From assembly GCA_000146465.1 (NCBI GenBank), contig CP001947.1: a stretch of DNA of 64,000 bases. The stretch is one strand, 5' to 3'. Below the pieces are notes generated by a model. It had not been told where the DNA came from, did no database searches, and worked only from the letters and a program-made list of their open reading frames with translations. Positions 1,307-57,734 of this stretch are shown here, one piece after another. The position numbers and the translations under genes are program-made. Positions within the stretch are counted from its first letter, which is position 1. The number at the start of each line of letters is the position of its first letter.

Positions 1307-1851
1307 TCAAGACGAGACTGCTCTGTTCGACAAGTTAAGTGCCTCTGCCTGCTCGGCAAGCTCTCGGGCTCTTTGCTCATCGGCCTTTCTCTTGATTATG
1401 CTATCTTTCATGTGGAATCTGTGCTTGAAAAGATGGCCCTTTGCCTGCTTGTAAAACACTCGGAAGTCTTCCTTGGTGATCTCTCCATTGGCCCTCATCT
1501 CCTTCAGCATCTTCCTCATTGCACGAATCTTCTTCATCCATAGCTCCTTCCTTGGCATTCTTGCATTGGCCGTACCAAAGCGCTTTCCAGGCCCCATGTG
1601 CCTCCCCTTCTTCTTGGCTGCCAGGCGCTTTCGGAGTCGTCCTCTGCTGGTGTGCTTGTCCTGCTTCATAATAATCACATTGTCTTGTATCAGCTGCCTA
1701 ATCTGATCCCGAGTGGTTGCTCCGTTGAGCCTCTCAATTTCGTTGTTATCCAACCAAAGCTTCTTCTTCCCACATCCTAGGATGTCTGCTGCCAAACGCC
1801 TGACTCTCTCCTCGTTCGACCTTCAAATTAGAAATGATCCATCACTTACAT
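1307..1851 (-). CDS. RPL19: 60S ribosomal protein L19e, spliced. Exon 2 is 1307..1820; exon 1 is only 'AT' at 1850..1851.
   Basis: The ORF matches L19e (LAADILGCGKKKLWLDNNE...) but begins at a TTG with no in-frame ATG. The minus strand upstream reads aaaAT|GTAAGTGATGGATCATTTCTAATTTGAAG|GTCGAAC. Removing the 29-nt intron gives MSNEERVRRLAADILGCGKKK, which aligns residue-for-residue with yeast MANLRTQKRLAASVVGVGKRK. AAAAATTTGCACCCTAAAA lies immediately 5' of the ATG. Confidence 0.8.
1821..1849 (-). other. Spliceosomal intron (29 nt) in RPL19, splitting the start codon as AT|G
   Basis: GTAAGTGA 5' end, branch-like TCTAAT 8 nt before the 3' AG. The frame and conserved N-terminus are restored only when it is removed. 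Confidence 0.7.
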
Positions 1852-1870
1852 TTTTAGGGTGCAAATTTTT
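1852..1870 (-). promoter_or_regulatory. AAATTT + CCC promoter motif upstream of RPL19
   Basis: Sense-strand AAAAATTTGCACCCTAAAA directly abuts the ATG. Near-identical blocks precede RPL14 and RPS26. Confidence 0.6.
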
Positions 1871-2424: not shown

Positions 2425-2585
2425 GTTTATACTCCACACTTCTTTATTTATAGACTTTCATGTTTCATCCTTATCACTCCTCATCAGTTTTCGTCCCTTG
2501 GATATTTACTTGACAGAGCTCTTGAAAGCCGGATATCCAGTCATACTCGCAAGGAATAAATATAGCTGGTTGGCAGACCCCAAGG

Positions 2586-3584: not shown

Positions 3585-4046
3585 TTATTTCTTTCTTGAA
3601 ACACCCATGGACTTCCCACGTCTTCCATTTGACTTGGTCCTTTGTCCACGGACCTTGAGGCCAACATCGAGTCTGCATGCTCTGATGCGCTTGTTCTTCT
3701 TTCCTCTTTCAATCATCATTCTTAGATCTGCATCGAGTTTTGTACCTATGAGATGGGATGTTGTCCCGTCAACAGGATCCTTCTGATGGTTTAGATAAGA
3801 TTCCGGAATTCCTAGGCTTGCAGGGTCGAGAATTGCATCTGAAATCCTCTTCATCTCCTCCTCAGACATTTCTCCGGCACGCCTCTTCAAATCAATCCCA
3901 AGGCGCTTGCATATGGCTGTCGAGATTCTTATTCCCACACCTCTGATCTTTGTAAGAGCAAAAGCAATTCTCTTTGTCCCGTCAATGTTGGTGTTGTGGA
4001 TACGAACGATGTACTGGACGTCAGCCGGGTCGTAGACATAGTTCAT
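3585..4046 (-). CDS. RPS18: 40S ribosomal protein S18 (uS13)
   Basis: Full-length match to the S18/uS13 family (VRIHNTNIDG...RACRLDVGLKVRGQRTKSNGRRGK). GAAAAATTTAATCCCTTAAATG lies upstream. No intron. Confidence 0.9.
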   Translation of the reverse strand: MNYVYDPADVQYIVRIHNTNIDGTKRIAFALTKIRGVGIRISTAICKRLGIDLKRRAGEMSEEEMKRISDAILDPASLGIPESYLNHQKDPVDGTTSHLIGTKLDADLRMMIERGKKNKRIRACRLDVGLKVRGQRTKSNGRRGKSMGVSRKK

Positions 4047-4069
4047 TTAAGGGATTAAATTTTTCACGG
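4047..4069 (-). promoter_or_regulatory. AAATTT + CCC promoter motif upstream of RPS18
   Basis: Sense strand ccgtGAAAAATTTAATCCCTTAA immediately 5' of the ATG. Confidence 0.55.
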
Positions 4070-4141
4070 TTCAAAATGAAGGCAGACTTTCAAGATGGAA
4101 AGACAACAGGACGTAGTAACAGATAAAACCAAAAGTATACT

Positions 4142-4426
4142 TTATTCCTCCAGAAGCATCTTTGTCAACTTCTTCATCCTCTTTCCTGCACGCTTGTGAG
4201 ACCCCAATCTCTTTCGGAGAATCCTCTGTGCCTTGCTATTGTTCTTTGCCTCAATAAGCGAAATAACTTTCTTCTCAAGTGGAGAATAACCGCATAACTC
4301 CTCTGCAACTGAGGCTGCAAACATGCGTATCTTTCCAGACTCCTCGCTGGGCTTCTTGGCTTCTCTCTTCACATCGGGCCTCTTTACTGGATAACGTACT
4401 CGAACTTTCTTGAGAGCGTTCTTCAT
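4142..4426 (-). CDS. RPL36: 60S ribosomal protein L36e
   Basis: The C-terminal 94 aa of the 197-aa ORF match L36e (GYSPLEKKVISLIE...RILRKRLGSHKRAGKRMKK). The internal ATG at 4424-4426 is preceded by AAAATTTTTCTCGGCCCTGCA. The upstream part of the ORF is not L36-like. Confidence 0.8.
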   Translation of the reverse strand: MKNALKKVRVRYPVKRPDVKREAKKPSEESGKIRMFAASVAEELCGYSPLEKKVISLIEAKNNSKAQRILRKRLGSHKRAGKRMKKLTKMLLEE

Positions 4427-4478
4427 TGCAGGGCCGAGAAAAATTTTAATTCTACAAGGATGCAGTCCTTGCAAACCA

Positions 4479-7070
4479 ATGCTTATTGAGAGGTTCAAAG
4501 AAATAAGAAACAAGATATATGAGGATATCCATGCAGCCTCTGAGACAGACATAAGATTTATGAGGGATGCTCTGGGTCTACAAGACATGGCATATGGAAG
4601 GATCAAGACGTATTCTGCCGAGGACAGCAAGGTTCTGGCGCTTTTTACATTGAAGTACAATGTTGCAGTTCTCTTGGAGTTTATTTCCCGAAACGGAGTC
4701 GAGCTTGGGAGCGATATATGTATGGCGCTTTGCAATGCATTGTTTGAGGAGATTCCTCAGGCATCTCCTGAATGTTCCCTGGAGATCGAGGATATAAAAG
4801 CACGAACGGACGAGGTGATTGTAGACATCCTGTGTAGCATTGGAGAGGGGATGCATGTTGAGAAGATCAAGTCATATTTGAGCTTGCAGGAGATTCCTGA
4901 CGGGGTTAGCGTCAATCTTGCAGTGGTGTTTACAGCTCCATCCTGGAAGTCGTATGACCTCCGTGTGATTAATGAATTGGTTCTTGGGCCTGTTTTGGTG
5001 GAGCTGCTGAGAAGTTTTAAGGAATCTCTCCGGCCGCAAATAAAGGAAAGAATATTGGACTCTTGCAAGAAGAGACTTAGGAATGAAAGAGATCGGTCGA
5101 TTATTTACCAAATATTCTACGAGCTTAACACAGGGAAGGACATTAAGATGTTTGAAATTGAAGAAGACGAGAAAGAGGAGGCATATGTTGGATTTATATA
5201 CTCTCTAATGGTTGATGAAGAAAGTTGCTTAAAGGGATATGAGGTTTTGTCAAAGGCAGGTCTTTTTAACGACCTAAGAAAGGCTCTTGAAATGATAAAT
5301 GTTCTAAGCCAGGCAGAATATAAAAGAATTAGGCCTGAAGATGAAAAGCTCATCTATCATCTTATGCAAGTGATTGAGAGGCTTGTATCTTCAGACTGGC
5401 ATGGCCTTGGCTTTGTAAGGCTGTACTTCATGAGATTTGTCGAGCTGTTTCTTAACACTCTTGTAGGGCAAATTTCTCTAAGGATAAAAGGGCAGATATA
5501 CGAGATCCTATCTTCATTCATGAGAGATGGAGACTGTAAGGAAACAATCTGCGAGTTTATGAGAGGAGTTGGGATATTCAACAAAGAGGCCATCCATGCT
5601 GATTTCGAGAAAGAACTTGAGAGTAAGAACTTCTCTATGGCTCCGAGTTTCCTCCGGTTTTGTACGTTTCTTGGAAATGAGGAATGTATCAGATTTGCCA
5701 TGTACGCACTTAAAAGCGAGGATCCATCAACAGTCACCCGGTGCTTTGACGTCATCGAAAGGTTTGTGGACAAGAAAAACACAGAGGGGGGGAGTAGCAG
5801 TGAGTTTATTGTTTCTCAGCTCTCCTTGATGTCTCAACATATTCGAGTAGCAATGCTAAACAACTCACAAGTCACCAACAGGATTTTGGAATTCCAGCTG
5901 AGCACGGGCATTGTGATTGGAGATGTGTCGATAATCAATGTGATCATAAATACACCGAACCCAAGGTTCTTTGAGTATGTAAGGCTTTTTGAGGACTTCT
6001 CATTCTTCATGAATGAAAACTTCCTTGAAAGGCTTTCTGAAGATGAAGAAGAAGGCTTCAAATATCTCTGTGAGGTGACTGCTAACAACCATGAAGCATG
6101 CAAGTTTGTGATGAACAATGAAGATTGGTTCAATGCTTATGTCAAAAACAATCCTTGTGTTCAAGAAGCAGCCATTAGGATATACGAGAACCTGGTTGAT
6201 TATGACATCGAGAATGTGGAAGTCAGCTTTGACAGAGGGTTTATCCTTCCAGACATACCACATCGGTCAGTATTCTCGATTCTTAGCAAGTTGATTCTTT
6301 ATTCGGTTTATACAAGAAAGACTTCATACTCAAGATATATCACAGACAAAGACTACAGCTTGGATAGCTCAAATATCAATGAGTACTGTTTGTATATCAA
6401 ATGCAGAATAGTTGTAGGAGACAATGTTGAGGATAGGATCAAATATCTTATGAAACAGTATACAGGAATAGAAGATCTACTCGGATATTATGAGGTTTCC
6501 ACTGGGATATCACTGAACATCTCCTCCTCAAAGAACCTCTTGGTAAACATAGGAAAGAAGGATACAAGCATGTTTATCAACATGTTTAGCAATGCTAGTA
6601 ACTTCGAGAAGTTTCTTTTATTCTTTTTCATTGGAGAAATTGATGCAGAGGAAGGCAAGGCAATTGAGAAAATAGTCAAAGAGGAAATCACAAGAATAAT
6701 GGTATCCCAGTCCTCGAGCACATCGGAGAAAATGATTCTGAGGCAATGCTTGATAACACTCTTGTCTCTTAACAACATAGACTCGATTGTGAGGTTGATA
6801 GGCGAATATGACGACACCGATCTACTTCTAAAAGCCAACATAAGAAATCTTCTGTGCGGAGGGTCATACTTCAATAGCTCTTTGGTCATGAAAGGCCCAT
6901 TGGAGCTGCAAGTCTATGCTGTTCTCCTCCTTTATTACAAATCAGTCTGGGACTTAGCTGCTCTGAAGGATTGGATCCTGTATCTTAGGAGAGAGTGTAA
7001 GGATAACGACGACCTGGAATATCTTATAAGCGATATCAAGAGCAAAAACATACGGATTGAGCTTGAGTAA
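4479..7070 (+). CDS. Large hypothetical alpha-helical protein (about 863 aa)
   Basis: Long uninterrupted ORF. The track start at 4410 is a TTG that overlaps the RPL36 start. The first ATG, at 4479 (MLIERF...), leaves a 52-bp bidirectional spacer to RPL36. No recognisable family; predicted helical-repeat composition. Confidence 0.55.
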   Translation: MLIERFKEIRNKIYEDIHAASETDIRFMRDALGLQDMAYGRIKTYSAEDSKVLALFTLKYNVAVLLEFISRNGVELGSDICMALCNALFEEIPQASPECSLEIEDIKARTDEVIVDILCSIGEGMHVEKIKSYLSLQEIPDGVSVNLAVVFTAPSWKSYDLRVINELVLGPVLVELLRSFKESLRPQIKERILDSCKKRLRNERDRSIIYQIFYELNTGKDIKMFEIEEDEKEEAYVGFIYSLMVDEESCLKGYEVLSKAGLFNDLRKALEMINVLSQAEYKRIRPEDEKLIYHLMQVIERLVSSDWHGLGFVRLYFMRFVELFLNTLVGQISLRIKGQIYEILSSFMRDGDCKETICEFMRGVGIFNKEAIHADFEKELESKNFSMAPSFLRFCTFLGNEECIRFAMYALKSEDPSTVTRCFDVIERFVDKKNTEGGSSSEFIVSQLSLMSQHIRVAMLNNSQVTNRILEFQLSTGIVIGDVSIINVIINTPNPRFFEYVRLFEDFSFFMNENFLERLSEDEEEGFKYLCEVTANNHEACKFVMNNEDWFNAYVKNNPCVQEAAIRIYENLVDYDIENVEVSFDRGFILPDIPHRSVFSILSKLILYSVYTRKTSYSRYITDKDYSLDSSNINEYCLYIKCRIVVGDNVEDRIKYLMKQYTGIEDLLGYYEVSTGISLNISSSKNLLVNIGKKDTSMFINMFSNASNFEKFLLFFFIGEIDAEEGKAIEKIVKEEITRIMVSQSSSTSEKMILRQCLITLLSLNNIDSIVRLIGEYDDTDLLLKANIRNLLCGGSYFNSSLVMKGPLELQVYAVLLLYYKSVWDLAALKDWILYLRRECKDNDDLEYLISDIKSKNIRIELE

Positions 7071-7198: not shown

Positions 7199-7420
7199 TC
7201 AAGGCTTGCTTGTATTCTCTTGCTTCTTGATCTCTCTCTGCTTCTGCCGCTCCCTTAAGAAGTTCCTCTTCTTTGTCTTTAAGATCTTGATCTTGCTAAG
7301 GAGGCTCTTTCTTTCCTCCTGCTTCTGCTGCTTTATTCTCAGCCTCTGCTTGAAGGAGAGGACTGTATTGGGATCTTTTTGTTTCTTCTCCTTCCATACC
7401 TTCAAGTAAGTTTTGCTCAT
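7199..7420 (-). CDS. Small lysine-rich hypothetical protein (73 aa)
   Basis: Only the C-terminal part (MSKTYLKVWKEKKQKD...) of the 150-aa ORF avoids the Sm gene on the opposite strand. Internal ATG at 7418-7420. Function unknown, possibly a nucleolar or ribosome-biogenesis basic protein. Confidence 0.35.
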   Translation of the reverse strand: MSKTYLKVWKEKKQKDPNTVLSFKQRLRIKQQKQEERKSLLSKIKILKTKKRNFLRERQKQREIKKQENTSKP

Positions 7421-7504
7421 TGCTGCGGTTCCTTGAAAAATATTTTTATCGTTAAGACATTCAAGCCAAAATAGTTGTGAGGGTGGAAAAGCCCTTAATT
7501 CGAA

Positions 7505-8276: not shown

Positions 8277-9194
8277 TCATGTTCTGTATAGATTATTGTA
8301 TTTCTTGAAAGCTTGGGCTTCAGAATCATACTCGCCTAGGCATGCTCGCTCCCTAGCCTCTTGGATTCTTTGCTTGAGTAGTCGAATCCTTGTTCTGTCA
8401 AACATAATGTCTCCAATAGTTCCGCTTGCACAAACCACTCCATCCTTCGGAGATTTTCCATGTCTATCCAGTATCTTCCTACCCATCTTCTTCCTTGCTT
8501 TCCTGGAACTGTTCTTCATGAGCAAACAAAATGTTTCGAGCAAGCTGCACTCCACATCCTCCAGATCCCTTTCCAGCTTGTTTCTCTTGCCATAAAGCTT
8601 GCACAATGCCTCAAGTAGATGTAGCTCTTTCCACATCCTTTCGACCTTCTCCTTCGAGAGCTCTTCACTTCTTCTACTTCTCCTACTAGGCTTAATAATT
8701 CTCTTGCGGAAGCACACATAAGCAAGAGGATTGAATTTCTCGTTTCTGATTAGTATTCTGGATGCAACCATCCTGGAGAACTTTTCCTTGCCTTCTAAAA
8801 GGTCTTGCTTGTTGGAGATCGTAGACAGTATCCCATAAAACTGCTTTTCATCCACTCCAGACTCCTTGCATATTCTCCTATCTTCGTTGTTCATCAAGTA
8901 CTCGTTCTCGGCATCTCCAATCCATTCGACATATTTGCGCTTGGGAACATATTTGCCATAAATTTCTCGTGCCGGGTTATCCACTTTAGTTATCACCGGA
9001 ATCGGGATGTTTCCCTTCTCTCCCTCCATTATCTTTTTCAGGTGGAGCTCTTTCTCTTCATCGGCTTCCATCCCTGTGTCAAGCGACGGAGGAACATACT
9101 CCTCCAAGGAAGACACGTCGAAGGACCCGGGTTTGTAAATAGCATATGGCAAGCCATTGTCTATTTTCACATTTCTCTTTCTCTTGTATACCAT
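8277..9194 (-). CDS. Enhancer-of-polycomb-like protein (Epl1, NuA4 subunit), EPcA domain
   Basis: IPIPVI...EY.....ED......(N)PLAYVCFRKRIIKPSRRSRR matches the EPc-N/EPcA signature (DPYVCFRRRE..K.RKTRR). Start moved to the internal ATG at 9192-9194. Confidence 0.55.
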   Translation of the reverse strand: MVYKRKRNVKIDNGLPYAIYKPGSFDVSSLEEYVPPSLDTGMEADEEKELHLKKIMEGEKGNIPIPVITKVDNPAREIYGKYVPKRKYVEWIGDAENEYLMNNEDRRICKESGVDEKQFYGILSTISNKQDLLEGKEKFSRMVASRILIRNEKFNPLAYVCFRKRIIKPSRRSRRSEELSKEKVERMWKELHLLEALCKLYGKRNKLERDLEDVECSLLETFCLLMKNSSRKARKKMGRKILDRHGKSPKDGVVCASGTIGDIMFDRTRIRLLKQRIQEARERACLGEYDSEAQAFKKYNNLYRT

Positions 9195-12179: not shown

Positions 12180-13970
12180 CTAGAAGAAATAGAACTCAAA
12201 GTCGTCGATTTCCTTTGTTTTTTCCTGCACGTGCTCCTCAGGCTTGTGTGCCTCCTTTCCATCTATCTTCTTGAGAATGTCCTGAAGTCTTTCGATAAGC
12301 TCGTTTTTCTTACCGGTGTGGTTCAGTCCAAACTCTTTCATAAGACTCTTGAGTTGCTGAACTGTGACATTGTTAAAGTCAAGCTCGCTTACCGAGTCCT
12401 TGAAGTTTTGAACCACTTCCTTAAACTCGTCTGTAACGCCTTTATTGGAATTAAGGAATAGCGGAAATATAGAATTTCCGTTGCTTCTCTCTGGAGAACT
12501 CTTTCTCATTGTCCCAAGATACATCTTTTGGCTGTCATCGACCCCTTGGATGAAGTCCAGACTCGAGTATTTTGATGGATGAACAATTCCCGGGTGCAAA
12601 CCTTGGTTACTCTTTATGTATTGCCACAAGAGAGGATTACTCTTCCTCTTTTTCCGGTTCATCCATGCATTGTTTTGTACAGGTACATCCGTATACCTCT
12701 GCTGGAAATGCGTCCTGAAGGCTGGATTCGGAAAGAGAGATGCCATCATTCTCCGGTCATAGTCTGCTCCGTCCACCTGCCTGTGCATTTTTTGGCCGCT
12801 TCCGAAAGAGGCTTGGCTATGACCGAACTCACGGTCGCCAAGAGTATGTGGTGAGGAAAATGCTCCACTATGTAGGTGATTTCTTGGTCCTTCGGAGCCA
12901 TGTATTCTAGAAATTTCCCCAGGCCCAAGGGGAACAGCTCTTCCTTCATAAAAGGAATGCCTTTCATTATTTCCAAATCCTCCTTCATAGTAGGAGTCAG
13001 GCCCCATCCTCACTTGAAAAGGCCCTTTGCGAAATCCTTGATTTAGTTCTTCGCCTTCCTTATACAAGAGATGTGTTGGGCCTTCAGAAAGCTTTTCCTC
13101 TCCCATACTCTTTCTTGAGGGCCCATATCTACCATATTCCTCTTTTCCTTTGGAAAATTCTTGATGGAAATTCCATGGTGTGCCTTGACTTCCAAAAGAT
13201 CCAGTATTACCGAATGCATCGTCTTCTTGGAACAGTCTTCTTCCCATTTCTCCGAAGTTGCTATCTTGTGAGCCTTTGGGCTCTCCCGGGAATTCCTGAA
13301 AAAAGGATGGAAGCCCAGTGCTCTGCTCATTTCCAGCTCTTCCACTATAATATGGATTTCTATTCCCTAGGTAGTCTCCTCCATCTTTCCCCACCCCATT
13401 CAGACCGTTATTGCTATAGGTCTCCACTTTTTTTACATCTAGAGAATTATCGGAGTTAATGCTATTGTTGCATGCTTCATTAGAAGAAATATCACCTGCT
13501 CTGGAAAATGGCTTACTAAATCCAAGAAAATTAGTTATGCTATCTGAGGAGTCTCCGGCCCTGCTGGTCTGTAGATATTCGCTAGGTAGGGAATTCTGCA
13601 TCCCTTGCAGTCCTCCTAAAGAGAAATGCTCTACTTGATTTGTAAACTGCTTTTGCCCATAGTCAACTTTGTCTCCAAAGCCATTTCGAATCTGGGTAAC
13701 ATGTAGAAAGGATTCCACATCTCTCTTTCGAGGCCTTCCTCTGGATGGAATTTCTATTGGCTTGGAATTCTGGTCGTCATCCATCTTGTCTCCTTCCTCT
13801 GTCCTCCATTTTGCTTTTAAATGTTTTAGGTACTCTGTTTCATTTCTCACAAATAGGATCTTGAGACTTCGTTTGTGGCCAGTAGCAGGGCGAGACTTGA
13901 TTCCCAAAACCTTCATTTTAGTAAAAGACAAGCGCAGGTCCAAATAATTGTTTTGTTTATGGATGTCCAT
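12180..13970 (-). CDS. Hypothetical nuclear protein with AT-hook-like RGRPRKR and C-terminal SAP domain
   Basis: 596 aa, low-complexity G/S/N-rich middle. C-terminus VTVQQLKSLMKEFGLNHTGKKNELIERLQDIL fits the SAP motif. True ATG at 13968-13970. Confidence 0.5.
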   Translation of the reverse strand: MDIHKQNNYLDLRLSFTKMKVLGIKSRPATGHKRSLKILFVRNETEYLKHLKAKWRTEEGDKMDDDQNSKPIEIPSRGRPRKRDVESFLHVTQIRNGFGDKVDYGQKQFTNQVEHFSLGGLQGMQNSLPSEYLQTSRAGDSSDSITNFLGFSKPFSRAGDISSNEACNNSINSDNSLDVKKVETYSNNGLNGVGKDGGDYLGNRNPYYSGRAGNEQSTGLPSFFQEFPGEPKGSQDSNFGEMGRRLFQEDDAFGNTGSFGSQGTPWNFHQEFSKGKEEYGRYGPSRKSMGEEKLSEGPTHLLYKEGEELNQGFRKGPFQVRMGPDSYYEGGFGNNERHSFYEGRAVPLGPGEISRIHGSEGPRNHLHSGAFSSPHTLGDREFGHSQASFGSGQKMHRQVDGADYDRRMMASLFPNPAFRTHFQQRYTDVPVQNNAWMNRKKRKSNPLLWQYIKSNQGLHPGIVHPSKYSSLDFIQGVDDSQKMYLGTMRKSSPERSNGNSIFPLFLNSNKGVTDEFKEVVQNFKDSVSELDFNNVTVQQLKSLMKEFGLNHTGKKNELIERLQDILKKIDGKEAHKPEEHVQEKTKEIDDFEFYFF

Positions 13971-13995
13971 GGCTAAAGACCAAGAGAAGGTTTAC

Positions 13996-14415
13996 ATGCT
14001 TTTGGAACTAGAAAGGATCCGGCAGCTGAATATCCCGCACGTGTATGCATTTCCTACTGGAACTCTGGAATTCACATGTGCAATGTTCCGAGGCTCGGAC
14101 CATACTGTCTTCAAGCTAATAAAATCAGACATTTATGAGAAGTGGAGTGTCCTAATCGATGGGGAATGTAGTGAGGAAATGAACAAGATGTCTGGCTCAT
14201 GCGATGCACATATAACACTAGAAACAACTGTACAGACACTAAGCAGATGCCATAATACCAGTCTCTTTGGAAAGTCTAAAAACATCTTTCCATTTATTTC
14301 CGAAGGTTTTCCAAACAGAGAGAAAAATATTACAGCGCTTTTGCTCTTTGTTAAAAATAGATGTTCCAAGACAAATGGTTGTGGAGAGAAGATGGCTATT
14401 CAGATAAAAGAGTAG
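13996..14415 (+). CDS. Hypothetical cysteine-containing protein (about 139 aa). Start uncertain.
   Basis: The only ORF filling the 477-bp gap between the SAP-domain gene start and the RPL14 stop. The track start is a TTG overlapping the opposite-strand start codon; first non-overlapping ATG used. No motif support. Confidence 0.25.
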   Translation: MLLELERIRQLNIPHVYAFPTGTLEFTCAMFRGSDHTVFKLIKSDIYEKWSVLIDGECSEEMNKMSGSCDAHITLETTVQTLSRCHNTSLFGKSKNIFPFISEGFPNREKNITALLLFVKNRCSKTNGCGEKMAIQIKE

Positions 14416-14446: not shown

Positions 14447-14797
14447 TCATGCCAGTCCCTTTTCCTTTAGGAGCTCGTCCTCAACTCTTTTCCTCAGCTT
14501 CATCTGGAATCTCTCGAAATCATTGGTTGTATCCTCCTCACTAATGCTTTCTGGAATGAGCTTTCCTATCTCTTCTGGACTAAGATCCTTAATGTCAAAC
14601 GACTCATCCTCAAGGTGGAGATTAGATATAGAGCACATTTCCCTCTCTCCATCCTTCCTCTGGAGAAGTACAAAGGTTGCATCGATGATGCCAACAATTA
14701 TGCCATATGTTTTTCTTTTTTCTTTGAGTGCAGGTGTCACAATCCTTCCCAGCCTTACTGTCTTCTAAAGTTAGCCAAAAAGAAGCTCACTTACCAT
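14447..14797 (-). CDS. RPL14: 60S ribosomal protein L14e, spliced. Exon 2 is 14447..14764; exon 1 is ATG at 14795..14797.
   Basis: The ORF begins at a GTG. Upstream on the minus strand: aaaATG|GTAAGTGAGCTTCTTTTTGGCTAACTTTAG|AAGACA... The spliced product MKTVRLGRIVTPALKEKRKTYGIIVGIID...TNDFERFQMKLRKR matches eL14 (compare yeast ...LTDFERFQVMVLRKQKR). AAAAATTTGCCCTAAAA abuts the ATG. Confidence 0.8.
14765..14794 (-). other. Spliceosomal intron (30 nt) in RPL14, immediately after the ATG
   Basis: GTAAGTGA...GGCTAAC...TTTAG. An in-frame TAG inside it is removed by splicing. Confidence 0.75.
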
Positions 14798-14814
14798 TTT
14801 TAGGGCAAATTTTT
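14798..14814 (-). promoter_or_regulatory. AAATTT + CCC promoter motif upstream of RPL14
   Basis: Sense AAAAATTTGCCCTAAAA directly 5' of the ATG. Confidence 0.6.
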
Positions 14815-20040: not shown

Positions 20041-21435
20041 ATGGAAAAGAACACAAAGATCAAGGGCGGGTCCTTCAAAACCATGGGATTGGATTACAGA
20101 CTTCTCCGAAACATTCTTTACGAAAACCCAACGCCAATTCAAAGAAAGACAATTCCGTTGGTTCTGGAGAGAAGGAGTCTAATGGGGGTTGGAAGAACAG
20201 GGAGTGGAAAGACACTATGCTATCTCATCCCTGCTGTGCAACGAGCCATCGAGGGAGAAAGAACACTTGTGATTGCCCCTACCAAGGAGCTTGTCACCCA
20301 GGTCAGAAGGGTACTGAAGAGACTGGCAAGAGGGATAGAGGATGTATGGAAGCTCATTGAAATCAACACTCCAGGAAATATTCAAAGCACAAGTGTTGAG
20401 ATGCTGGTGGTTGATGAAATAGATAGAATTCTGGAAGAGCCAAGCCTGAAGTTGGTATTTGATAGGATAAGCGAAGAGGTGGCGTGCCAGAAGGTATTCT
20501 TTAGTGCAACACTCCCAGATCATCCATTGAACATAAAGGTAGTTGAAATAGAGGCCAAGATAAACGAGACGGTTAAGCATTTTTTCTTCTATGTTCCAAG
20601 TGAGAGCAAGGAGGCAGCTCTGCTTCGAGTATTGGATAAGACAAGAAAGACAATTGTGTTTGTTGCAACTAAGTATGCTGTGGAATTGCTTCTAGAGATC
20701 CTTAACAAAAACAATTTCGAGTCACGTGGAATTTATTCTTCAATGGACGATGAGGCAAGAAGAACCAATTTCAAAGACTTCAACTCTTCCAAGTTCAACA
20801 TTCTTGTTGTGACGGATGTTGCAGCACGTGGACTAGACATCCCATATCTTGACACTGTTGTAAACTATGATCTGTGTGACGAAAGGACATTTCTGCACAG
20901 GGTTGGGCGTGTTCGGGGAATGGGAGTGCAATACAGCTTTGTGACATACACAGATGTCTTTCACTTCTTCAACATACAGGAAACATATCTTCCCAATGTT
21001 GAGATCGGAACAATTCCTCAGGAGTATCTAGATGTTTATGACTTCGGGGAATTTGAGCATCTAAAGTCTGTTGCAAACAAAGGACATCAGAAATGCCTTG
21101 AATTTAGAAGAAAAGTCAGTGTTCCGGCCGAGTACAAAGACAAGATAAAGGGATTCAAAACTCATTCTATGTTTGAGCATAAGGAAACACTTCTTGACCA
21201 GCTTAAAGAGATGGAGAGCCGCAAGACATTACCTCGAAAGGAAGATGAAAAAGTAGAAAACAAAGAGTACAGAGACCAGACATTTATACCCTATGCCCGT
21301 AAGGACTCTAGAATTCATTCATCTGCGTTTGGAGTGGCGAAAGATGATTACGTCAGAGAAAGAAAGGAAAAATTTTCTTTTTCCATGATGAGGAGGAGAA
21401 CAGCAAAGAAAACGGCGGAAACAAGTAAAAAATAA
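20041..21435 (+). CDS. DEAD-box ATP-dependent RNA helicase
   Basis: Q motif (PTPIQ), GRTGSGKT, PTKEL, DEID, SAT, ARGLDIP and HRVGRVRG motifs. Basic C-terminal tail. Confidence 0.85.
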   Translation: MEKNTKIKGGSFKTMGLDYRLLRNILYENPTPIQRKTIPLVLERRSLMGVGRTGSGKTLCYLIPAVQRAIEGERTLVIAPTKELVTQVRRVLKRLARGIEDVWKLIEINTPGNIQSTSVEMLVVDEIDRILEEPSLKLVFDRISEEVACQKVFFSATLPDHPLNIKVVEIEAKINETVKHFFFYVPSESKEAALLRVLDKTRKTIVFVATKYAVELLLEILNKNNFESRGIYSSMDDEARRTNFKDFNSSKFNILVVTDVAARGLDIPYLDTVVNYDLCDERTFLHRVGRVRGMGVQYSFVTYTDVFHFFNIQETYLPNVEIGTIPQEYLDVYDFGEFEHLKSVANKGHQKCLEFRRKVSVPAEYKDKIKGFKTHSMFEHKETLLDQLKEMESRKTLPRKEDEKVENKEYRDQTFIPYARKDSRIHSSAFGVAKDDYVRERKEKFSFSMMRRRTAKKTAETSKK

Positions 21436-21532
21436 ACGAATTTTATTGGCAAGTAAGTTGTTGTGTCTTCTTAGTTATAAAGGTTTTCAAGAAATCAGGG
21501 TTTTGGAATTGTGTATCTCCTTTAAAGTAGGA

Positions 21533-21605
21533 GGCCTCATAGCTCAATGGTTAGAGTGTCGGCCTACGGAGCCGAAGGTTGAGGGTTCGAGTCCCTCTGG
21601 GGTCG
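21533..21605 (+). tRNA. tRNA-Arg (anticodon ACG)
   Basis: 73-nt cloverleaf folded by hand: acceptor GGCCTCA/TGGGGTC, D arm GCTC..GAGT, anticodon stem TCGGC/GCCGA with loop CTACGGA (ACG), T arm GAGGG-TTCGAGT-CCCTC. Confidence 0.85.
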
Positions 21606-22112
21606 GCTGTCTTTTGTGCTTCTTTTTTTCTTCCTAGACTTTTTCATCCACATCTCTAGTGCATTGCTTCTGTATCTGCCCTGCACATCTTCATCCAACG
21701 AGTTCCACATCTTAATGAACATACGAACGTTTTCTTCTGGAGACACATTTATGTCGCCACAGATGTCGAAGAGTTCGTTTACAAAGAAAAGATATCCTGA
21801 ACACTCCCATCGCTGTATATCCCGTATTTTAACATATTTTCTTAGCTTCTTTATCGTGTTTGTATCATTGACTAAATTGCCGTCGTCACAGCCATCCAAC
21901 TCATTGGCTTCCTCAAGATCTTTATTGCATTTTTCCACATACATATTCCTCTCCTCGTCCGGCATTTCCTTCCATACAGCCATCATATTCAAGGCAGTAT
22001 CGACACAACTTGTGTATTTGTAATTATTACTTTGGAAAAAGTCCCTGGCAAAGACCGTGAATGGAGATCTCTGCTTGGTAGGCATTGAATACAAGGATTC
22101 AAAAAATTTCAT
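21564..22112 (-). CDS. HMG-box protein with two HMG boxes
   Basis: MPTKQRSPFTVFARDFF...AVWKEMPDEERNMYVEKCNKD and a second KKLRKYV...FIKMWNSLDEDVQGRY box. Start set to ATG 22110-22112, preceded by ATACCCCCGAG. The hydrophobic N-terminus implied by the track start is rejected. The last about 14 codons overlap the tRNA-Arg gene antisense. Confidence 0.6.
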   Translation of the reverse strand: MKFFESLYSMPTKQRSPFTVFARDFFQSNNYKYTSCVDTALNMMAVWKEMPDEERNMYVEKCNKDLEEANELDGCDDGNLVNDTNTIKKLRKYVKIRDIQRWECSGYLFFVNELFDICGDINVSPEENVRMFIKMWNSLDEDVQGRYRSNALEMWMKKSRKKKRSTKDSRPQRDSNPQPSAP

Positions 22113-22194
22113 CTCGGGGGTATGTATCTTCGAAAAATACACCAAAGGAATTAGATAGTACAGTAGAGGCCAATAAATAGAGTCCATTTAATCC

Positions 22195-22740
22195 CTATTT
22201 TCCCACCAGGCCCGAATTCACATTCTTTTCTTCAGCAATCTTGTTATAGACGGCCTTCTCGTCGTCGCTGAGTTCTTTCCATCTCTTTGCAACAGCAGAC
22301 GTAGTCTCCATCATCGTGAAGCTGGGATTCTCTTCAGAAACAGCTTTTCGGACTGCCTTAAAGAACTCGTTGTACCCAGTTACTTTCTTGGCTCCTTTTT
22401 TCTTTCTTCCAGCTGCTGCTTCATCAGCTGCAACCTTCTCAAGATAATCCTGGTACTCATCGCTCTTCTTGTATTCCTCAACCTTTGCCAGATATAGCTC
22501 TCTCTCCTTGTTTGAAATCTTGTTGTATTCCTCTCTTTCCTCATCAGAGAGCTTCTTCCACATCTCAGAAATAGATCTTCCTTGGTCTGCTACGGGTAGC
22601 TTGCTCAGTTCCTCATTCTTCTTCCTTTGCTCCTGCCCAAAAATAAAGTACCCCGACATAGGCTTCTTCGGTGCATTGGGGTCCTTGCGTTTTTTTACTG
22701 CCGCTTTACTCCTTGGCTTTTTGCTCTTCTCAGTTACCAT
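22195..22740 (-). CDS. HMGB/Nhp6-like protein with two HMG boxes
   Basis: DPNAPKKPMSGYFIFGQEQRKK...EMWKKLSDEEREEY and a second ...KRWKELSDDEKAVY box. CTACCCCCATCATT precedes the ATG. Confidence 0.8.
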   Translation of the reverse strand: MVTEKSKKPRSKAAVKKRKDPNAPKKPMSGYFIFGQEQRKKNEELSKLPVADQGRSISEMWKKLSDEEREEYNKISNKERELYLAKVEEYKKSDEYQDYLEKVAADEAAAGRKKKGAKKVTGYNEFFKAVRKAVSEENPSFTMMETTSAVAKRWKELSDDEKAVYNKIAEEKNVNSGLVGK

Positions 22741-22866
22741 AATGATGGGGGTAGAAGAAATAGCTTATAAAATTTTAATAAGAACCAGCCCAGTCGATAT
22801 TTTACAGTTAAATCGCCCTTCTAACCTCTTATCATATGCAGTAGATACCAATTGATAGAGTGTCTT

Positions 22867-23643
22867 TTACAAAATATCATTCTCGGGCCTGAGTCTCTCC
22901 TTAACAATCTCAAGTAGCTTCTTCACCTCGGAAAGCATAGCATGTGTTGAAATGTATTCCTCTATGACTCTGTGTGCCTCATTCAAGTCTCCCTGAAGTG
23001 CATTACATACCTCCTTCTCATCTCCACTGACATCAAGATCTAGAGGCGTCCCCTCGATGGAATAGCAGAGAAATCCACAGAAGGTGTATATGTTTTCCTT
23101 GAACCCCAAGAATATTTTAGCTGCCTCTCCATACCTTCCAAGTTCTATATACACCTCTGCAATGTCTCTCATTGCCTTTTTCTTATGATGCTTCCAGCTG
23201 CTTCCACAGTAGCACTCAGCAACCTTCTGCAGGCATTCCAGGCATCCCTCGAGATTTCCTTCCTTTCTTAGTATCTCAGATGCTCTTTGGAAACTCACTG
23301 CTGCCAAGCTCTCTCGTCCACATTGCTTGGAATACATCCCAGACTTCTTATATGCCGAAATGGCTTTTTCAGGATATTCATCCTCACATGTCTGTGCTAT
23401 CTTCTCATACACCTGCGAAGCTTGATATCTTCCATACTCTCCGTCCTCCATCTCATAGGTCTTTGCCGCCTCCTCGTAGTATCGTATCTTTTCAGATGTC
23501 TCCTCTTCCATATTTCCAATCTCCATGAAAATCTCCGCAGAGCTTTCATAGTCTGGCGATGAAAACAGATTGAATGGAAATGCTCCCTTTGTCCTCAATT
23601 TCTCTGCTTCCTTTAGTTTTCTGGTTTTGGATTCAGCATCCAT
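22867..23643 (-). CDS. SEC17: Alpha-soluble NSF attachment protein (alpha-SNAP / Sec17)
   Basis: TPR-like helical hairpins throughout with the SNAP-family pattern. Start moved from a TTG to ATG 23641-23643, preceded by GGAAGGGGCCC. Confidence 0.7.
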   Translation of the reverse strand: MDAESKTRKLKEAEKLRTKGAFPFNLFSSPDYESSAEIFMEIGNMEEETSEKIRYYEEAAKTYEMEDGEYGRYQASQVYEKIAQTCEDEYPEKAISAYKKSGMYSKQCGRESLAAVSFQRASEILRKEGNLEGCLECLQKVAECYCGSSWKHHKKKAMRDIAEVYIELGRYGEAAKIFLGFKENIYTFCGFLCYSIEGTPLDLDVSGDEKEVCNALQGDLNEAHRVIEEYISTHAMLSEVKKLLEIVKERLRPENDIL

Positions 23644-23749
23644 GGGCCCCTTCCCGTGTGTTTTTTTAAGCACCTCCGCTTTTTCAAATCCAGAGAGCAA
23701 CCTGCACAAAACTTTATTTAATAAACATCAATAAATCTATCCTGAAGAC

Positions 23750-24673
23750 TTAATGGGAGCAGAAGGGCTTTCTGCTGAGATTGTATATTAGTATCCCCAC
23801 AATACTTATGGCTAATCCTGCATAGTTCAAACTGCTTAGGGTGATATCTTTTGTTACTATTGCATAAAAAATAATTATCAGCTCCTTAACAATCCCTGCA
23901 ACACTTAGAAACACAACACCGGTTTCCGAAACAAGCATGAACTCTGCACATAGTAGCGTAAATGATAGGACCCCGCAAAGAGAAATATACCCAAAATTTC
24001 GTAGGGCAGCATCAAACGTGTTGAAAAACCTAGATGTTGCTATCTCCATGAGACCTTCAACATGCAAAGAAATTAAGAGGAGGAGGAACGATATGGGAAG
24101 GCAAAGGTCCCTTATGGTTACAAGAATTCCTTCCTTCCGGACTTCCTGATTTCTAATAAGGTATTGGACAAACGCCCATCGGAACCCTGCCATCAAAGAA
24201 GCAAACGAGATGGTTCCGAATCCAATAATATCAAAGCTTGTGTTTTTTATTGACGTGAGAAACACTCCCACGCCAATGGTGAATATCGTCAGAAAAAACG
24301 TTATCGATGGTTTCTCGATCCCAAGTGCAAATCCAAATAACAGAATAAACACCGGAGAAGAAGACTTCACCATTGTGTAGAATGCAAGGGTTGCCGACCT
24401 TAGAGATATGGATGAAAGGCCTATGTCTGTGGCTCCTGCAAGGGCACATGGAAACGAAGGCCCAAAGTAATTAGGCTTTGGAGCTTTTTCCTTCTGAAAC
24501 CTCAGGGCTGTGGATGCTCCGAAAAAATGGATCAGGTTCTGCATGGACGCCTTGAACAAGGGAAAGGAGAAATTGTATGTCTTTTTGGAAAGCAGAAACG
24601 ATGTTAGATATCCCAGGCTTAATGACAGAACATAATACATGAGCACTAATCCCAGTACTCTGATTCTGTTCAT
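23750..24673 (-). CDS. Nucleotide-sugar / triose-phosphate transporter family membrane protein (DMT superfamily)
   Basis: 307 aa with about 9-10 TM helices and TPT/EamA-like repeats. Confidence 0.55.
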   Translation of the reverse strand: MNRIRVLGLVLMYYVLSLSLGYLTSFLLSKKTYNFSFPLFKASMQNLIHFFGASTALRFQKEKAPKPNYFGPSFPCALAGATDIGLSSISLRSATLAFYTMVKSSSPVFILLFGFALGIEKPSITFFLTIFTIGVGVFLTSIKNTSFDIIGFGTISFASLMAGFRWAFVQYLIRNQEVRKEGILVTIRDLCLPISFLLLLISLHVEGLMEIATSRFFNTFDAALRNFGYISLCGVLSFTLLCAEFMLVSETGVVFLSVAGIVKELIIIFYAIVTKDITLSSLNYAGLAISIVGILIYNLSRKPFCSH

Positions 24674-24800
24674 TCCTCTTGAGTGTATTTTCTTTGGAGA
24701 GTCTTTTCTTCACAATGTTTCAAAGCCCCATCCAATCACATTGTTGTGTCTGGAACAAATGAATTCTGGTTTCTATAAATATGTTTTTTTTCCTAGGCCC

Positions 24801-24997
24801 TACCTCTCAAGCCAATCGGCTTTGATCAAGTGTAGTATCTGTTCTTGCCAGTGTAAGAACTGGCATTATCCGTAAGGATAAATTCATCGAATTTTTGGAT
24901 GGCAGGGTGATGTAGAGGAGCTTGAGCGCTTGCGTTTCGGCCAATCTACTTGAGGTCTGCAGGCTTCTGGGCTGTAGAGCCTAGGAAAAGCCGTTTT
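24801..24997 (+). ncRNA. U2 spliceosomal snRNA
   Basis: GATCAAGTGTAGTATCTGTTCTT at 24823-24845 matches the universally conserved U2 branch-point-interaction region (GAUCAAGUGUAGUAUCUGUUCUU). It is preceded by stem-loop I (AAGCC-AATC-GGCTT) and followed by stem IIa (GCCAGT-GTAAGA-ACTGGC), stem IIb (TTATCC-GTAA-GGATAA), the Sm site AATTTTTGG (24890-24898) and 3' hairpins. TATAAATA lies about 25 nt upstream and a T7 run follows. Ends are approximate. Confidence 0.8.
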
Positions 24998-29224: not shown

Positions 29225-29269
29225 CTGGGGTTACAAACAAAATCAAGGAATTTACTCAAGGCCCTAAAA

Positions 29270-29710
29270 ATGTCCGGAATAATTTATGAAAACAGGGGAG
29301 TAAATACGGAATACACGGATGTCTTTTCTAGCCTGGTAGAAGACCTGAAGAACGATGTTCTATCGTTACAACTCACAAACTTCGATGACGTAAACCATTT
29401 GTACAAGACAGAAGGAAGATGCTCTATGAATGTAAAGGATCTGGAGGATTACACAGAAAGCACCCAAGTAAAGAATATCGATTATAATGGCCAAAAATAC
29501 ATTTTCATGAGAGCCATCAGTGATGATGCACAACCTTCTTTGATATTTATCAGCGTGGATGGAGACGAAAGAGGACGAAAAAGAGGACTGCTGGTGACAT
29601 CCTTCTGTGAAATCCTCAAGATGATTGTTACTTTCGATTATCAGGTTGCCAACAGCGTAACAGCCAGGATCTTCAAGGTTCTTGAAGAATATTCTTGCGA
29701 AGAGGAGTGA
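29270..29710 (+). CDS. Hypothetical protein (146 aa), possible longin/roadblock-like fold
   Basis: The track start at 29138 overlaps the divergent gene. The internal ATG at 29270 is preceded by the strong motif GGCCCTAAAAATG, identical to the ribosomal-protein gene motif. No family recognised from sequence. Confidence 0.45.
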   Translation: MSGIIYENRGVNTEYTDVFSSLVEDLKNDVLSLQLTNFDDVNHLYKTEGRCSMNVKDLEDYTESTQVKNIDYNGQKYIFMRAISDDAQPSLIFISVDGDERGRKRGLLVTSFCEILKMIVTFDYQVANSVTARIFKVLEEYSCEEE

Positions 29711-29787
29711 AGGAAAAAGCCTTTAGAATCCTTCATGATTAAATATTCATGATATTTATATGCCCATTGGTACATTTATTAGGCCTT

Positions 29788-30744
29788 ATGAGGATAACAT
29801 CGTTCAATGTTAACGGGATCCGCTCCTTCAGTAAGTATATAATGAAGAGCCACAGGCTGAGGTTCAATGATTATGTCAAGGAAACTCTCAAGGCAGACAT
29901 TCTATGTGTTCAAGAAACCAGAGGAAACAAGAATGCCTTGAATGAGTTCCACTCTCTCAAGGACTACATCACATTTACAAGTACAAACAAGAGAAATAGT
30001 GGAAGGTCGGGTGTTTCAACAATTGTATCAAAAAAACTGTATTGTCGAGGGATCCTCCCCTCGCCATTTTCGGAAGAAGGGAGATCGTTGCTAACCGACC
30101 ACGGGGATTACAAGGTCCTGAACCTGTATTTCCCCTTTTTCGACGAGAATTCCGGGAAGGATAAATCCGAAGTGATTAAGTTTTATAATGAAGTTGGGAG
30201 GTTTATTAGGATGCATGAAAACATGGTTATCTGCGGGGACTTTAATGCAGTATATTCGATTGTGGACCATTACCAATTCTACAATGAACTTCTACGTATA
30301 CAACGCATGGGGAGGACGGGATGGACGAAGGAAACAAGACGAATGAAGAAATGCCCGTCCAAGACCGAGCTTCCTTATGAATTTTGCAGTGAAGATGCAT
30401 TAGAAGCCTATTTCTTTGAAGTACAACAAAGAAAGTGGCTAAAGAATCTAGTGGACTCGGGGGAGTATATAGATACTTACAGGATTCTGCATACAAGGCC
30501 TGAGTCGTACACATGCTGGAACACCATGCTTAACCTGCGCCCTCGCAACTTGGGTACGAGAATAGACTACATTCTTATTCCATCGGGTTTCTTCTACAAG
30601 CTCAAGGATTGCGATATACAACCTAAGATCTACGGAAGCGACCATTGCCCAGTGTACGCAGAGATGGATTTTAAGATCACAGACGATGGAAATAACATCC
30701 TAGACAAAAGAAAAAACAACATACTTGATTTCTTTGGGTCCTGA
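29788..30744 (+). CDS. AP endonuclease, exonuclease III family (APN2/APEX-like)
   Basis: MRITSFNVNGIRS, LCVQETR, ICGDFN and SDHCPV motifs of the ExoIII/EEP family. Start set at ATG 29788. Confidence 0.8.
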   Translation: MRITSFNVNGIRSFSKYIMKSHRLRFNDYVKETLKADILCVQETRGNKNALNEFHSLKDYITFTSTNKRNSGRSGVSTIVSKKLYCRGILPSPFSEEGRSLLTDHGDYKVLNLYFPFFDENSGKDKSEVIKFYNEVGRFIRMHENMVICGDFNAVYSIVDHYQFYNELLRIQRMGRTGWTKETRRMKKCPSKTELPYEFCSEDALEAYFFEVQQRKWLKNLVDSGEYIDTYRILHTRPESYTCWNTMLNLRPRNLGTRIDYILIPSGFFYKLKDCDIQPKIYGSDHCPVYAEMDFKITDDGNNILDKRKNNILDFFGS

Positions 30745-36417: not shown

Positions 36418-36547
36418 AGTCAGTATACGCATTACAAACGACTGAGAATTGGAAACCTTGTTTCATGGAGGAACTCCCTGAGTCGTCTTATCTGCGATGA
36501 AACAAGTAGGAGTAGTATATAACTACTTTGAAAAGGTTTAGTAACAT

Positions 36548-40087: not shown

Positions 40088-40145
40088 CAGGGCTTGGAGC
40101 TCCAAAAATTTGTTGCCCAATAAATGGACTTGAAATTGGTCCCTG

Positions 40146-41481: not shown

Positions 41482-41838
41482 TTAATTATGAGAGCTTACC
41501 CTGTTCGGATTGAATCCATATCTGATCTTTCTTCCTTGAGAAGAGCGGACTCTAACTATCTTGGCGTGGCACGCACAAGACACGCAGAACTGTGACTTAT
41601 AGCCCATCCTTGGAACTTCAAACACTTCGTAGATGGTTTTCTCTTTCAGATCATCAAATGAGGCCTGTTCAATGAGAGACTGAATCCTAAATCTTTTGAT
41701 TGCCTTATCCTTAGGTGTTACACTGCCGCACTTATCGCACTGGATGGGCTTCACACTTCCTCTGTTCTTCTTTGATCTCCCGTGGTTTCTTCTTTTAACT
41801 GTCTATAAAATTAGAATGCTTCGCCTATCACTTACCAT
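41482..41838 (-). CDS. RPS26: 40S ribosomal protein S26e, spliced. Exon 2 is 41482..41802; exon 1 is ATG at 41836..41838.
   Basis: Minus strand: gaATG|GTAAGTGATAGGCGAAGCATTCTAATTTTATAG|ACAGTTAAAAGAAGAAACCAC... gives [39 protein letters not shown]..., a clear S26e (compare [23 protein letters not shown]...VPKDKAIK). AAAATTTTTGCCCTTAAGA abuts the ATG. Confidence 0.8.
41803..41835 (-). other. Spliceosomal intron (33 nt) in RPS26, immediately after the ATG
   Basis: GTAAGTGA...TTCTAAT...TATAG. Same architecture as the RPL14 and RPL19 introns. Confidence 0.75.
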
Positions 41839-41858
41839 TCTTAAGGGCAAAAATTTTC
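41839..41858 (-). promoter_or_regulatory. AAATTT + CCC promoter motif upstream of RPS26
   Basis: Sense AAATTTTTGCCCTTAAGA directly 5' of the ATG. Confidence 0.6.
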
Positions 41859-44414: not shown

Positions 44415-44518
44415 GGCTTCCAAGTGTTTGTTGGATTGCTCTATTTCTCTGTTTCAGAATCATATCCAAAACTAGAAATCACTCTGTTTCGAAACCACAT
44501 CCATTAGTTTTACATCTT

Positions 44519-51296: not shown

Positions 51297-51355
51297 CTCT
51301 ACGGCACAATTTGTATGAGGATAAAAATAAGATGAAATATTATAGAGAAGAAAAT

Positions 51356-51799
51356 TTAATAGACCCATTTCTCATCAAAGAAGGACATTGGCAGAGCTTC
51401 GTCCCCAATCCAAAGCTTGATTTCCTTCTCGGCATTTTCAACCGAGTCCGAGCCATGGATGATGTTTTTTCCCGTAGCCATTCCATAATCTCCTCGGATA
51501 GTTCCTACAGAGGCTTCCCGAGGATTTGTTTCTCCAATTAGTTTCCTTCCCACAGATACAGCATCTTTACCAACCCACACCATTGCTAGAACCATTCCAG
51601 ACATCATGTGCTCCACCATTTCACCAAAAAATGGCCTGGCAGACAGATGGGAATAGTGCTGTTCTAGAACCTCTTTCTTTGGAATTACACATTTGGAAGC
51701 GGCTAGGTACAGTCCCTTTTCCTCGAATCTTTGGATCACTTTGGACATCAGCCTTCGCTTGATACCTTCGGGCTTGATCATGATAAAAGTTCTCTCCAT
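51356..51799 (-). CDS. NDK: Nucleoside diphosphate kinase
   Basis: ERTFIMIKPEG...NIIHGSD (active-site His) ...E..LW. Full-length 147 aa. AAAAATTTAATCGAAAAGAACGAATCCCTTTAA lies upstream. Confidence 0.95.
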   Translation of the reverse strand: MERTFIMIKPEGIKRRLMSKVIQRFEEKGLYLAASKCVIPKKEVLEQHYSHLSARPFFGEMVEHMMSGMVLAMVWVGKDAVSVGRKLIGETNPREASVGTIRGDYGMATGKNIIHGSDSVENAEKEIKLWIGDEALPMSFFDEKWVY

Positions 51800-51835
51800 T
51801 TAAAGGGATTCGTTCTTTTCGATTAAATTTTTACC
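51800..51835 (-). promoter_or_regulatory. AAATTT + CCC motif upstream of NDK
   Basis: Sense aaAAAATTTAATcgaaaagaacgaATCCCTTTAA|ATG, the same architecture as the ribosomal-protein genes. Confidence 0.5.
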
Positions 51836-54567: not shown

Positions 54568-54697
54568 TCCGTGGGGTTAAAAATTAGGCCAAAGAAATCT
54601 CACTTCAGGACTTCCACTTAATACGTTGATAGTCACTTTGCCAAGATGGACCGAAGGATTGTTTTATTTTATTTACGTTCAATCAGAAAATCCCAGG

Positions 54698-57662: not shown

Positions 57663-57734
57663 GGTTGCGTGGTGTAATGGTTATCACTTCAGACTCTGAA
57701 TCTGACAATCTGAGTTCGAATCTCGGCGCGACCA
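57663..57734 (+). tRNA. tRNA-Gln (anticodon CTG)
   Basis: 72-nt cloverleaf: acceptor GGTTGCG/CGCGACC, anticodon stem TCAGA/TCTGA with loop CTCTGAA, T arm CTGAG-TTCGAAT-CTCGG, discriminator A. Confidence 0.8.

Follow-up and report, generated by a model that had tools for sequence, protein, structure and literature searches.

CCC and AAATTT-like signals directly upstream of start codons on Encephalitozoon intestinalis chromosome VI: candidate compressed core promoters

Our data suggest, with a probability that we put at about 90%, that the protein genes studied here are served by compressed core promoters, in which a CCC triplet plays an initiator-like role, a minority of genes add a TATA-like box, and ribosomal-protein genes carry an AAATTT element characteristic of their regulon. 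This reading rests on the position, strand bias, enrichment and conservation of the motifs and, for the transcription starts, on the E. cuniculi literature; the initiator role and the binding factors are, judged from sequence, its most likely further steps. The CCC/AAATTT promoter grammar as such has been known since 2009, is built into annotation software and constitutes no new biology. What may interest the specialist are promoter classes that are stable across the clade, a sharply placed TATA-like word, an (A)TGAAACA element and the finding that the ribosomal protein msL2 joins the ribosomal-protein promoter type. It also means that a reader given sequence only can recover the true regulatory grammar of a minimal eukaryotic genome.

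The window, i.e. the whole stretch of 64,000 nucleotides that was analysed, is part of chromosome VI of E. intestinalis ATCC 50506 (40% GC, about one gene per kb): the product of 4479-7070 (863 aa) is identical over its full length to Eint_061060, and the other exact matches are Eint_0610xx to Eint_0616xx. All counts refer to 58 protein genes in this one 64-kb window. To choose their starts, the motif was disregarded and the first in-frame ATG of every long ORF taken; nine starts were then moved to the NCBI-annotated position according to exact-sequence look-ups or homologue searches. For two genes (13963-14415 and 29749-30744) exact-sequence look-ups did not fix the start. A first look-up with the NDK protein returned solely a Logan contig identical to the window. 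Earlier gene identifications were upheld by Pfam (RPS18, RPL36, RPL19, eS26), by the E. cuniculi ribosome structures 7QEP and 6RM3 (eL14) and by Rae1 structures, in which the WD40 protein finds its best match with Rae1/Gle2 (E 5e-42); those of NDK, the APC8-like TPR protein, the eRF3/HBS1-like GTPase, NFACT/RQC2 and the DOHH-like protein hold as well. A search of solved structures with the product of 8277-9194, a gene with GAAAAATTATCC upstream of its start codon, gave only a weak match to the EPc region of Enhancer-of-polycomb.

A C-triplet and TATA-like words upstream of start codons

Exact CCC on the sense strand is found within 10, 15 and 25 nt of the ATG in 31, 35 and 37 of the 58 genes, respectively, against background rates of 5.6%, 8.7% and 14.3% over all 2535 ATGs of the window (p 1e-23 to 8e-18; 9e-23 within 15 nt). 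CCC and ATG are separated by a median of 4 nt (range 0 to 11 nt). An unbiased word count over the 58 genes likewise ranks CCC first among 3-mers in -12 to -1, and the leading 4-mers are GCCC and CCCT. At positions -1 and -4 there is a preference for A. GGG precedes three to five genes only (4/58 within 15 nt), e.g. Eint_061000 and the CDT1-like gene. Among genes without exact CCC, 11 have a one-base variant and eight have none; since 36% of the genes do without it, exact CCC is no universal requirement. The preliminary description of this DNA had placed a C-triplet before nearly every start, which captured a signal far above chance but overstated its reach, as exact CCC lies within 25 nt in 64% of the genes only. 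It was right to equate the motifs with the CCC-like and AAATTT-like transcriptional signals known from microsporidia, Encephalitozoon among them. Its sequence examples are also there, i.e. GCCCTTAAGAATG at 41836-41848 (eS26), CCCTGATG for the eRF3-like gene, APC8 and RQC2, and GCCCTATG for DOHH; GCCCTAAAAATG occurs at eL14 (14795-14806, minus strand) and at 29261-29272 (plus strand), but not at the Ctr9-like gene, which reads GCCCCTAAAATG.

In these features the window signal resembles the microsporidian CCC/GGG signal described before (Cornman et al. 2009, Nosema ceranae; PMC2803860; Belkorchia et al. 2017, PMC5499648), which is a C-triplet on the sense strand, no more than about 15 nt from the ATG, with GGG as a rare alternative, which also precedes ncRNA genes and which places start codons. 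There is no essential difference, except that exact CCC serves 60-64% of the window genes rather than nearly all.

Conservation was followed at 10 syntenic loci from E. cuniculi (two strains), E. romaleae, E. hellem, Ordospora colligata and five Encephalitozoon-like contigs, which range from 36% to 59% in GC. Of the orthologues of CCC genes, 70 of 72 have retained CCC, as against 2 of 49 with CCC among those of CCC-less genes; whether a gene has CCC thus is a stable property of that gene across the clade. Identity to E. intestinalis is 0.73 at the CCC positions as against 0.49 at neighbouring positions. Three of the contigs (L003, L006 and L007 from Logan SRR21633403, SRR21023581 and SRR29713747), which are syntenic with Encephalitozoon chromosome VI, have 53-59% GC compared with 38-48% at the loci of the named species, and encode proteins that share 65-77% identity with Eint_061060; undescribed relatives are a possible source of these contigs.

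Could the motifs have arisen from base composition or from short spacers between genes, without having any function? Non-coding DNA is indeed slightly richer in A/T than coding DNA (63% versus 59%). However, the enrichment reaches p values of 1e-10 to 1e-23 against all ATGs of the same sequence, CCC is strongly preferred over GGG on the sense strand, AAATTT is depleted overall yet three times denser in non-coding DNA, and the motifs persist in relatives with 53-59% GC. This explanation therefore has a practically negligible probability.

TATA-like words (TATAWA or ATAAAW) occupy a sharp position. They start at -26 to -35 in 15 cases as against 1.6 expected, covering 12 of the 58 genes, with only four hits elsewhere within -80 to -1, and they are commoner in CCC-less genes (8/21) than in CCC genes (4/37; Fisher p 0.02). 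The band from -26 to -35 corresponds to the usual distance between TATA and transcription start and thus fits transcription starting right at the ATG. In the promoters of Trachipleistophora hominis and N. ceranae, too, a TATA box at fixed distance is found in a minority and CCC in a majority of genes; the same study describes E. cuniculi spacers as being without canonical motifs (Heinz et al. 2012, PMC3486916), whereas the window has TATA-like words in 12/58 genes. Both signals also precede an untranslated RNA:

24800-24992, plus strand: U2 snRNA gene (Rfam U2, 83.5 bits), between the TPT transporter and GPN3 genes
24774-24800, plus strand: U2 promoter, with TATAAATA (24774-24781, about -26) and GGCCC (24796-24800), the CCC of which (24798-24800) lies at the 5' end of the U2 match

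This gene bears on the question whether CCC is a Kozak-like context for translation initiation, residing on the mRNA, instead of a transcription signal. Such a role would be compatible with CCC standing immediately before the ATG and with the favoured A at -1 and -4. That U2 snRNA has both TATA and CCC implies, however, that CCC acts on an untranslated RNA, i.e. in transcription, and for 18 ncRNA genes of E. cuniculi the same combination of TATA and CCC has been reported (PMC5499648). Moreover, 5'RACE in E. cuniculi has revealed 5'UTRs of less than 7 nt (PMC2803860), which puts CCC at -5 to -8 mostly outside the mRNA, and a spacer varying from 0 to 11 nt is unlike a fixed ribosomal contact. 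A Kozak-like function is thus very improbable. In our preferred reading as a core promoter, (G)CCC(T), strand-specific and 2-6 nt upstream of the ATG, most likely is initiator-like and would fix the transcription start a few bases before the start codon, with the TATA-like box of a minority of genes (5' base at -26 to -35) as a second putative component.

The AAATTT-like element of ribosomal-protein and other genes

The interval 4047-4478, to which the preliminary description had been attached, contains three promoters and one gene; with the adjoining RPS18 gene its features are as follows:

3585-4046, minus strand: RPS18 (uS13) coding sequence, 153 aa (Pfam Ribosomal_S13, E 4e-35)
4051-4064, minus strand: RPS18 promoter, with AAAAATTT (4057-4064), AAT, CCC (4051-4053), TTAA and the ATG at 4046
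4142-4426, minus strand: RPL36 (eL36) coding sequence, 94 aa (Pfam Ribosomal_L36e; orthologues also 94 aa)
4431-4447, minus strand: RPL36 promoter, with AAAATTTTT (4439-4447), CTCGG, CCC (4431-4433), TGCA and the ATG at 4426
4466-4481, plus strand: start region of Eint_061060, with TCCTT (4466-4470), GCAAACCA and the ATG at 4479

The other three classical ribosomal-protein genes have the same arrangement:

1857-1870, minus strand: RPL19 (eL19) promoter, with AAAAATTT, GCA, CCC, TAAAA and the ATG at 1851
14803-14814, minus strand: eL14 promoter, with AAAAATTT, G, CCC, TAAAA and the ATG at 14797
41845-41857, minus strand: eS26 promoter, with AAAATTTTT, G, CCC, TTAAGA and the ATG at 41838

In all five, AAAA(A)TTT stands 1-5 nt before CCC, and CCC 4-6 nt before the ATG, so that the element spans -10 to -21. 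The preliminary description correctly assigned AAATTT to each of them, although it set the element 10-20 nt upstream of CCC instead of 1-5 nt. Among all words AAATTT is the top 6-mer in -45 to -6 (14/58 genes versus 2.5%, p 1.5e-10), and within 50 nt upstream it is found in 5/5 classical ribosomal-protein genes as compared with 9/53 others (Fisher p 4e-4). Over the entire window it is depleted (39 sites versus 64 +/- 8 in shuffles), and 13 of the 39 sites fall into non-coding DNA, which makes up 13% of the window (p 0.001). A composite of an AAATTT-like element, up to 12 nt, CCC, up to 10 nt and ATG is found at eight genes and at just 11 of the 2535 ATGs.

The ribosomal-protein promoters are nearly unchanged in seven species, in which their flanks diverge. 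The RPS18 layout is kept in 5/5 orthologues and the RPL36 promoter in 6/6; the 2009 supplement (PMC2803860) gives aaaaatttaatcccctaa for E. cuniculi ECU06_1110 (RPS18) and aaaatttttcccgaccctgca for ECU06_1120 (RPL36), the start of which was likewise corrected there. The palindromic core at RPL36 also faces the divergent gene Eint_061060. In L006, in which the spacer between the two genes has grown to 189 nt, AAAATTTT still adjoins RPL36, which shows the palindrome to belong to the ribosomal-protein gene; the AAATTT before Eint_061060 is a bystander, i.e. a property of its neighbour RPL36. Eint_061060 itself has no CCC; its TCCTT is a one-base variant of the CCC-like signal, and (A)TCCTT is conserved at 6/7 loci. 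An ATG at 4460 was rejected as the start of this gene, being out of frame and opening a 9-codon ORF.

All this is in line with the AAATTT-like signal of Peyretaillade et al. 2009 (PMC2803860), who described CCC-, GGG- and AAATTT-like signals, with AAAA(A)TTT standing immediately before the CCC of each classical ribosomal-protein gene, a palindrome that divergent genes can have in common, and AAATTT also before some abundant non-ribosomal proteins. The window differs from their description in the gene for msL2:

7427-7447, minus strand: msL2 promoter, with AAAAATATTTTT, CAAGGA, ACC, GCAGCA and the ATG (coding sequence 7199-7420, 73 aa)

The product matches chain MS of 7QEP (ECU06_1135, E 1.9e-29), i.e. 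msL2, a ribosomal protein specific to microsporidia (Encephalitozoon/Ordospora) and found in 2022 (PMC8807834). Its promoter, which the preliminary description did not list, has a variant AAATTT-like signal that is conserved in five orthologues. By its sequence, this recently evolved ribosomal protein is served by a variant of the ribosomal-protein promoter type; we found no mention of the interrupted form, AAAAATATTTTT followed by ACC, in the papers that we consulted.

Outside the ribosomal-protein genes, AAATTT presents a mixed picture at the three places for which it had been reported:

54573-54585, minus strand: promoter of the Rae1/Gle2-like WD40 gene, with AATTTTTAACCCC, ACGGA and the ATG at 54567
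51805-51832, minus strand: NDK promoter, with AAAAATTT (51825-51832), 17 nt, CCC (51805-51807), TTTAA and the ATG at 51799
40088-40145: divergent spacer of 58 nt between the APC8-like gene (minus strand) and the eRF3/HBS1-like gene (plus strand)

The WD40 gene reads AATTTTTAACCCC, without the exact AAATTT ascribed to it, and this element is nearly invariant in E. cuniculi, E. romaleae, E. hellem and Ordospora colligata. The idea that a WD40 gene with a ribosomal-protein-like promoter might encode RACK1, itself a ribosomal protein, was rejected, because RACK1 matches weakly and Rae1/Gle2 best. At NDK, CCC is conserved in all four orthologues and AAATTT is loosely kept. The APC8/eRF3 spacer has its own CCCTG on each side (40090-40092, minus strand; 40141-40143, plus strand) and one shared AAATTT (40106-40111); E. 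cuniculi ECU06_1430 reads aaatttttagagctgcgcaccctg in the 2009 supplement, i.e. the AAATTT of APC8 is kept there (PMC2803860). For ECU06_1550, a further orthologue of the window promoters, the supplement gives aatttttaaccccatcga. As AAATTT is poorly conserved at NDK and at YchF (-30), some of its non-ribosomal occurrences may be incidental.

What binds the element? One candidate is TBP, in which case the element would simply serve ribosomal-protein genes as their TATA box and no specific regulator would be involved. In favour of this are its richness in A/T, the lack of any further TATA-like word at the five classical ribosomal-protein genes, the presence of a TFIIB gene in the window and the TATA-like role proposed by the 2009 authors (PMC2803860). 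At -10 to -21, however, instead of -26 to -35, the element would be about 10-14 nt too near the ATG, and the word conserved across species is GAAAA(A)TTT and not TATAWA. Position and word together favour, as we infer, a regulon factor over TBP, which makes a TATA box rather unlikely. In the core-promoter reading that we prefer, the palindromic (G)AAAA(A)TTT(T) placed 1-5 nt upstream of CCC in ribosomal-protein and a few other genes is most likely bound by a putative regulon-specific factor, which would lead to coordinated high expression; AAATTT-like signals have been found to correlate with high expression (PMC4589312).

The word itself resembles the yeast RRPE (TGAAAAATTT, bound by Stb3; PMC551538, PMC9952952), with which it has in common a tie to a ribosome regulon, but no more than a resemblance is meant. 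In 6/6 species (T)GAAAA(A)TTT stands in the RPS18 promoter, and the majority of the other ribosomal-protein promoters have GAAAA(A)TTT on one of their strands; within the window (T)GAAAA(A)TTT is found in RPS18, RPL19 and eS26, and on the opposite strand in RPL36 and msL2, with eL14 having ACAAAAATTT. In yeast, however, RRPE lies at a median of 188 bp from the ATG (PMC551538), not at 10-21 nt, and serves ribosome-biogenesis genes, with repression via Stb3 and Rpd3, whereas the window element serves ribosomal-protein genes. By analogy, the AAATTT-like element might be a reduced-genome counterpart of the fungal RRPE (GAAAAATTT) that moved from a distal position at ribosome-biogenesis genes into the core promoter of ribosomal-protein genes and of which msL2 acquired a variant, a speculation that we consider distinctly unlikely. 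If true, it would mean that ribosome synthesis in microsporidia is linked to an ancestral circuit of fungal growth control. A literature search for RRPE, Stb3 or TGAAACA in connection with microsporidia found nothing relevant.

Start codons and annotation

Twenty-two ORFs of the window open with TTG or GTG; CCC is present in 13 of these and, when three intron-bearing ribosomal-protein genes are included, in 16. The TTG/GTG 'starts' are an artefact of applying the bacterial code to a eukaryote. In 17 of the 22, the first in-frame ATG is the true start, such that the claim that the motif had fixed more than 20 starts holds for a small part of them: CCC overrules the choice of the first ATG at RPL36 (4426), GPN3 (25052), Eint_061210 (22112) and the haemolysin-III-like gene (49345), and in all four the CCC-preceded ATG is the annotated start. 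For RPL36 this is an internal ATG within a TTG-opened ORF of 197 codons. CCC also helps in three genes in which an intron separates the ATG from the ORF:

1821-1849, minus strand: eL19 intron, splitting the start codon AT/G
14765-14794, minus strand: eL14 intron, directly after the ATG
41803-41835, minus strand: eS26 intron, directly after the ATG

Introns of 29-33 nt right at the start codon make these ATGs invisible to ORF finders. For annotation, the motifs thus help to tell real starts apart from first-ATG calls in a small number of genes, and they point out ribosomal-protein genes with an ATG severed by an intron. Placing starts by the motif, presented as a new point in the preliminary description, goes back to 2009, when 364 E. 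cuniculi start codons were corrected in this way (PMC2803860). E. intestinalis was later re-annotated with these signals (Nat Commun 2012, cited in PMC10815200), and MicroAnnot automates the motif-based start rule. At four loci, all on the minus strand (53445-53496, 13784-13970, 51296-51368 and 46318-46366), the annotated start is a downstream ATG without CCC; at Eint_061510 the rejected first ATG falls inside the ATGAAACA element.

(A)TGAAACA in CCC-less genes and further loci

CCC-less genes have a candidate signal of their own. The word (A)TGAAACA occurs on the sense strand 42-58 nt before the ATG in 6 of 21 CCC-less genes and in none of 37 CCC genes (Fisher p 0.0013), at the following sites:

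2461-2467, minus strand: TGAAACA
13836-13842, minus strand: TGAAACA
24716-24722, minus strand: TGAAACA
36498-36504, plus strand: TGAAACA
44450-44456, minus strand: TGAAACA
53489-53495, minus strand: TGAAACA

The genes concerned are those for Erv1, a SAP protein, the TPT transporter, Vtc4 and Sec1 as well as Eint_061510. A TATA-like word follows 3-14 nt after (A)TGAAACA, and orthologues as distant as those of Ordospora keep the element in the form TGAAAC(A/G). In a positional test that makes no use of annotation, ATGAAAC and TGAAACA take ranks 1 and 2 among 210 permutations. The signal is positional only, i.e. the global count of TGAAACA in the window shows no excess (17 versus 15.3 expected). 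Three of the six sites lie in divergent spacers, and the element therefore is no 3'-end signal. The word is the same as that of the yeast Ste12 site, again a resemblance only, and we found no published description of (A)TGAAACA in microsporidia.

Three further observations concern other loci of the window. The region 20041-24673 contains a DEAD-box RNA helicase, two HMG-box genes (21564-22112 and 22195-22740) and the TPT transporter, which we take to be the arrangement of the microsporidian sex-related locus (Lee et al. 2008). A tRNA-Arg(ACG) gene (21533-21605, plus strand) overlaps the last 42 nt of Eint_061210 (21564-22112, minus strand). Finally, a tRNA-Gln(CTG) gene (57663-57734) lies in an unusually long spacer of 378 nt between the KDEL-receptor and PSP1 genes.
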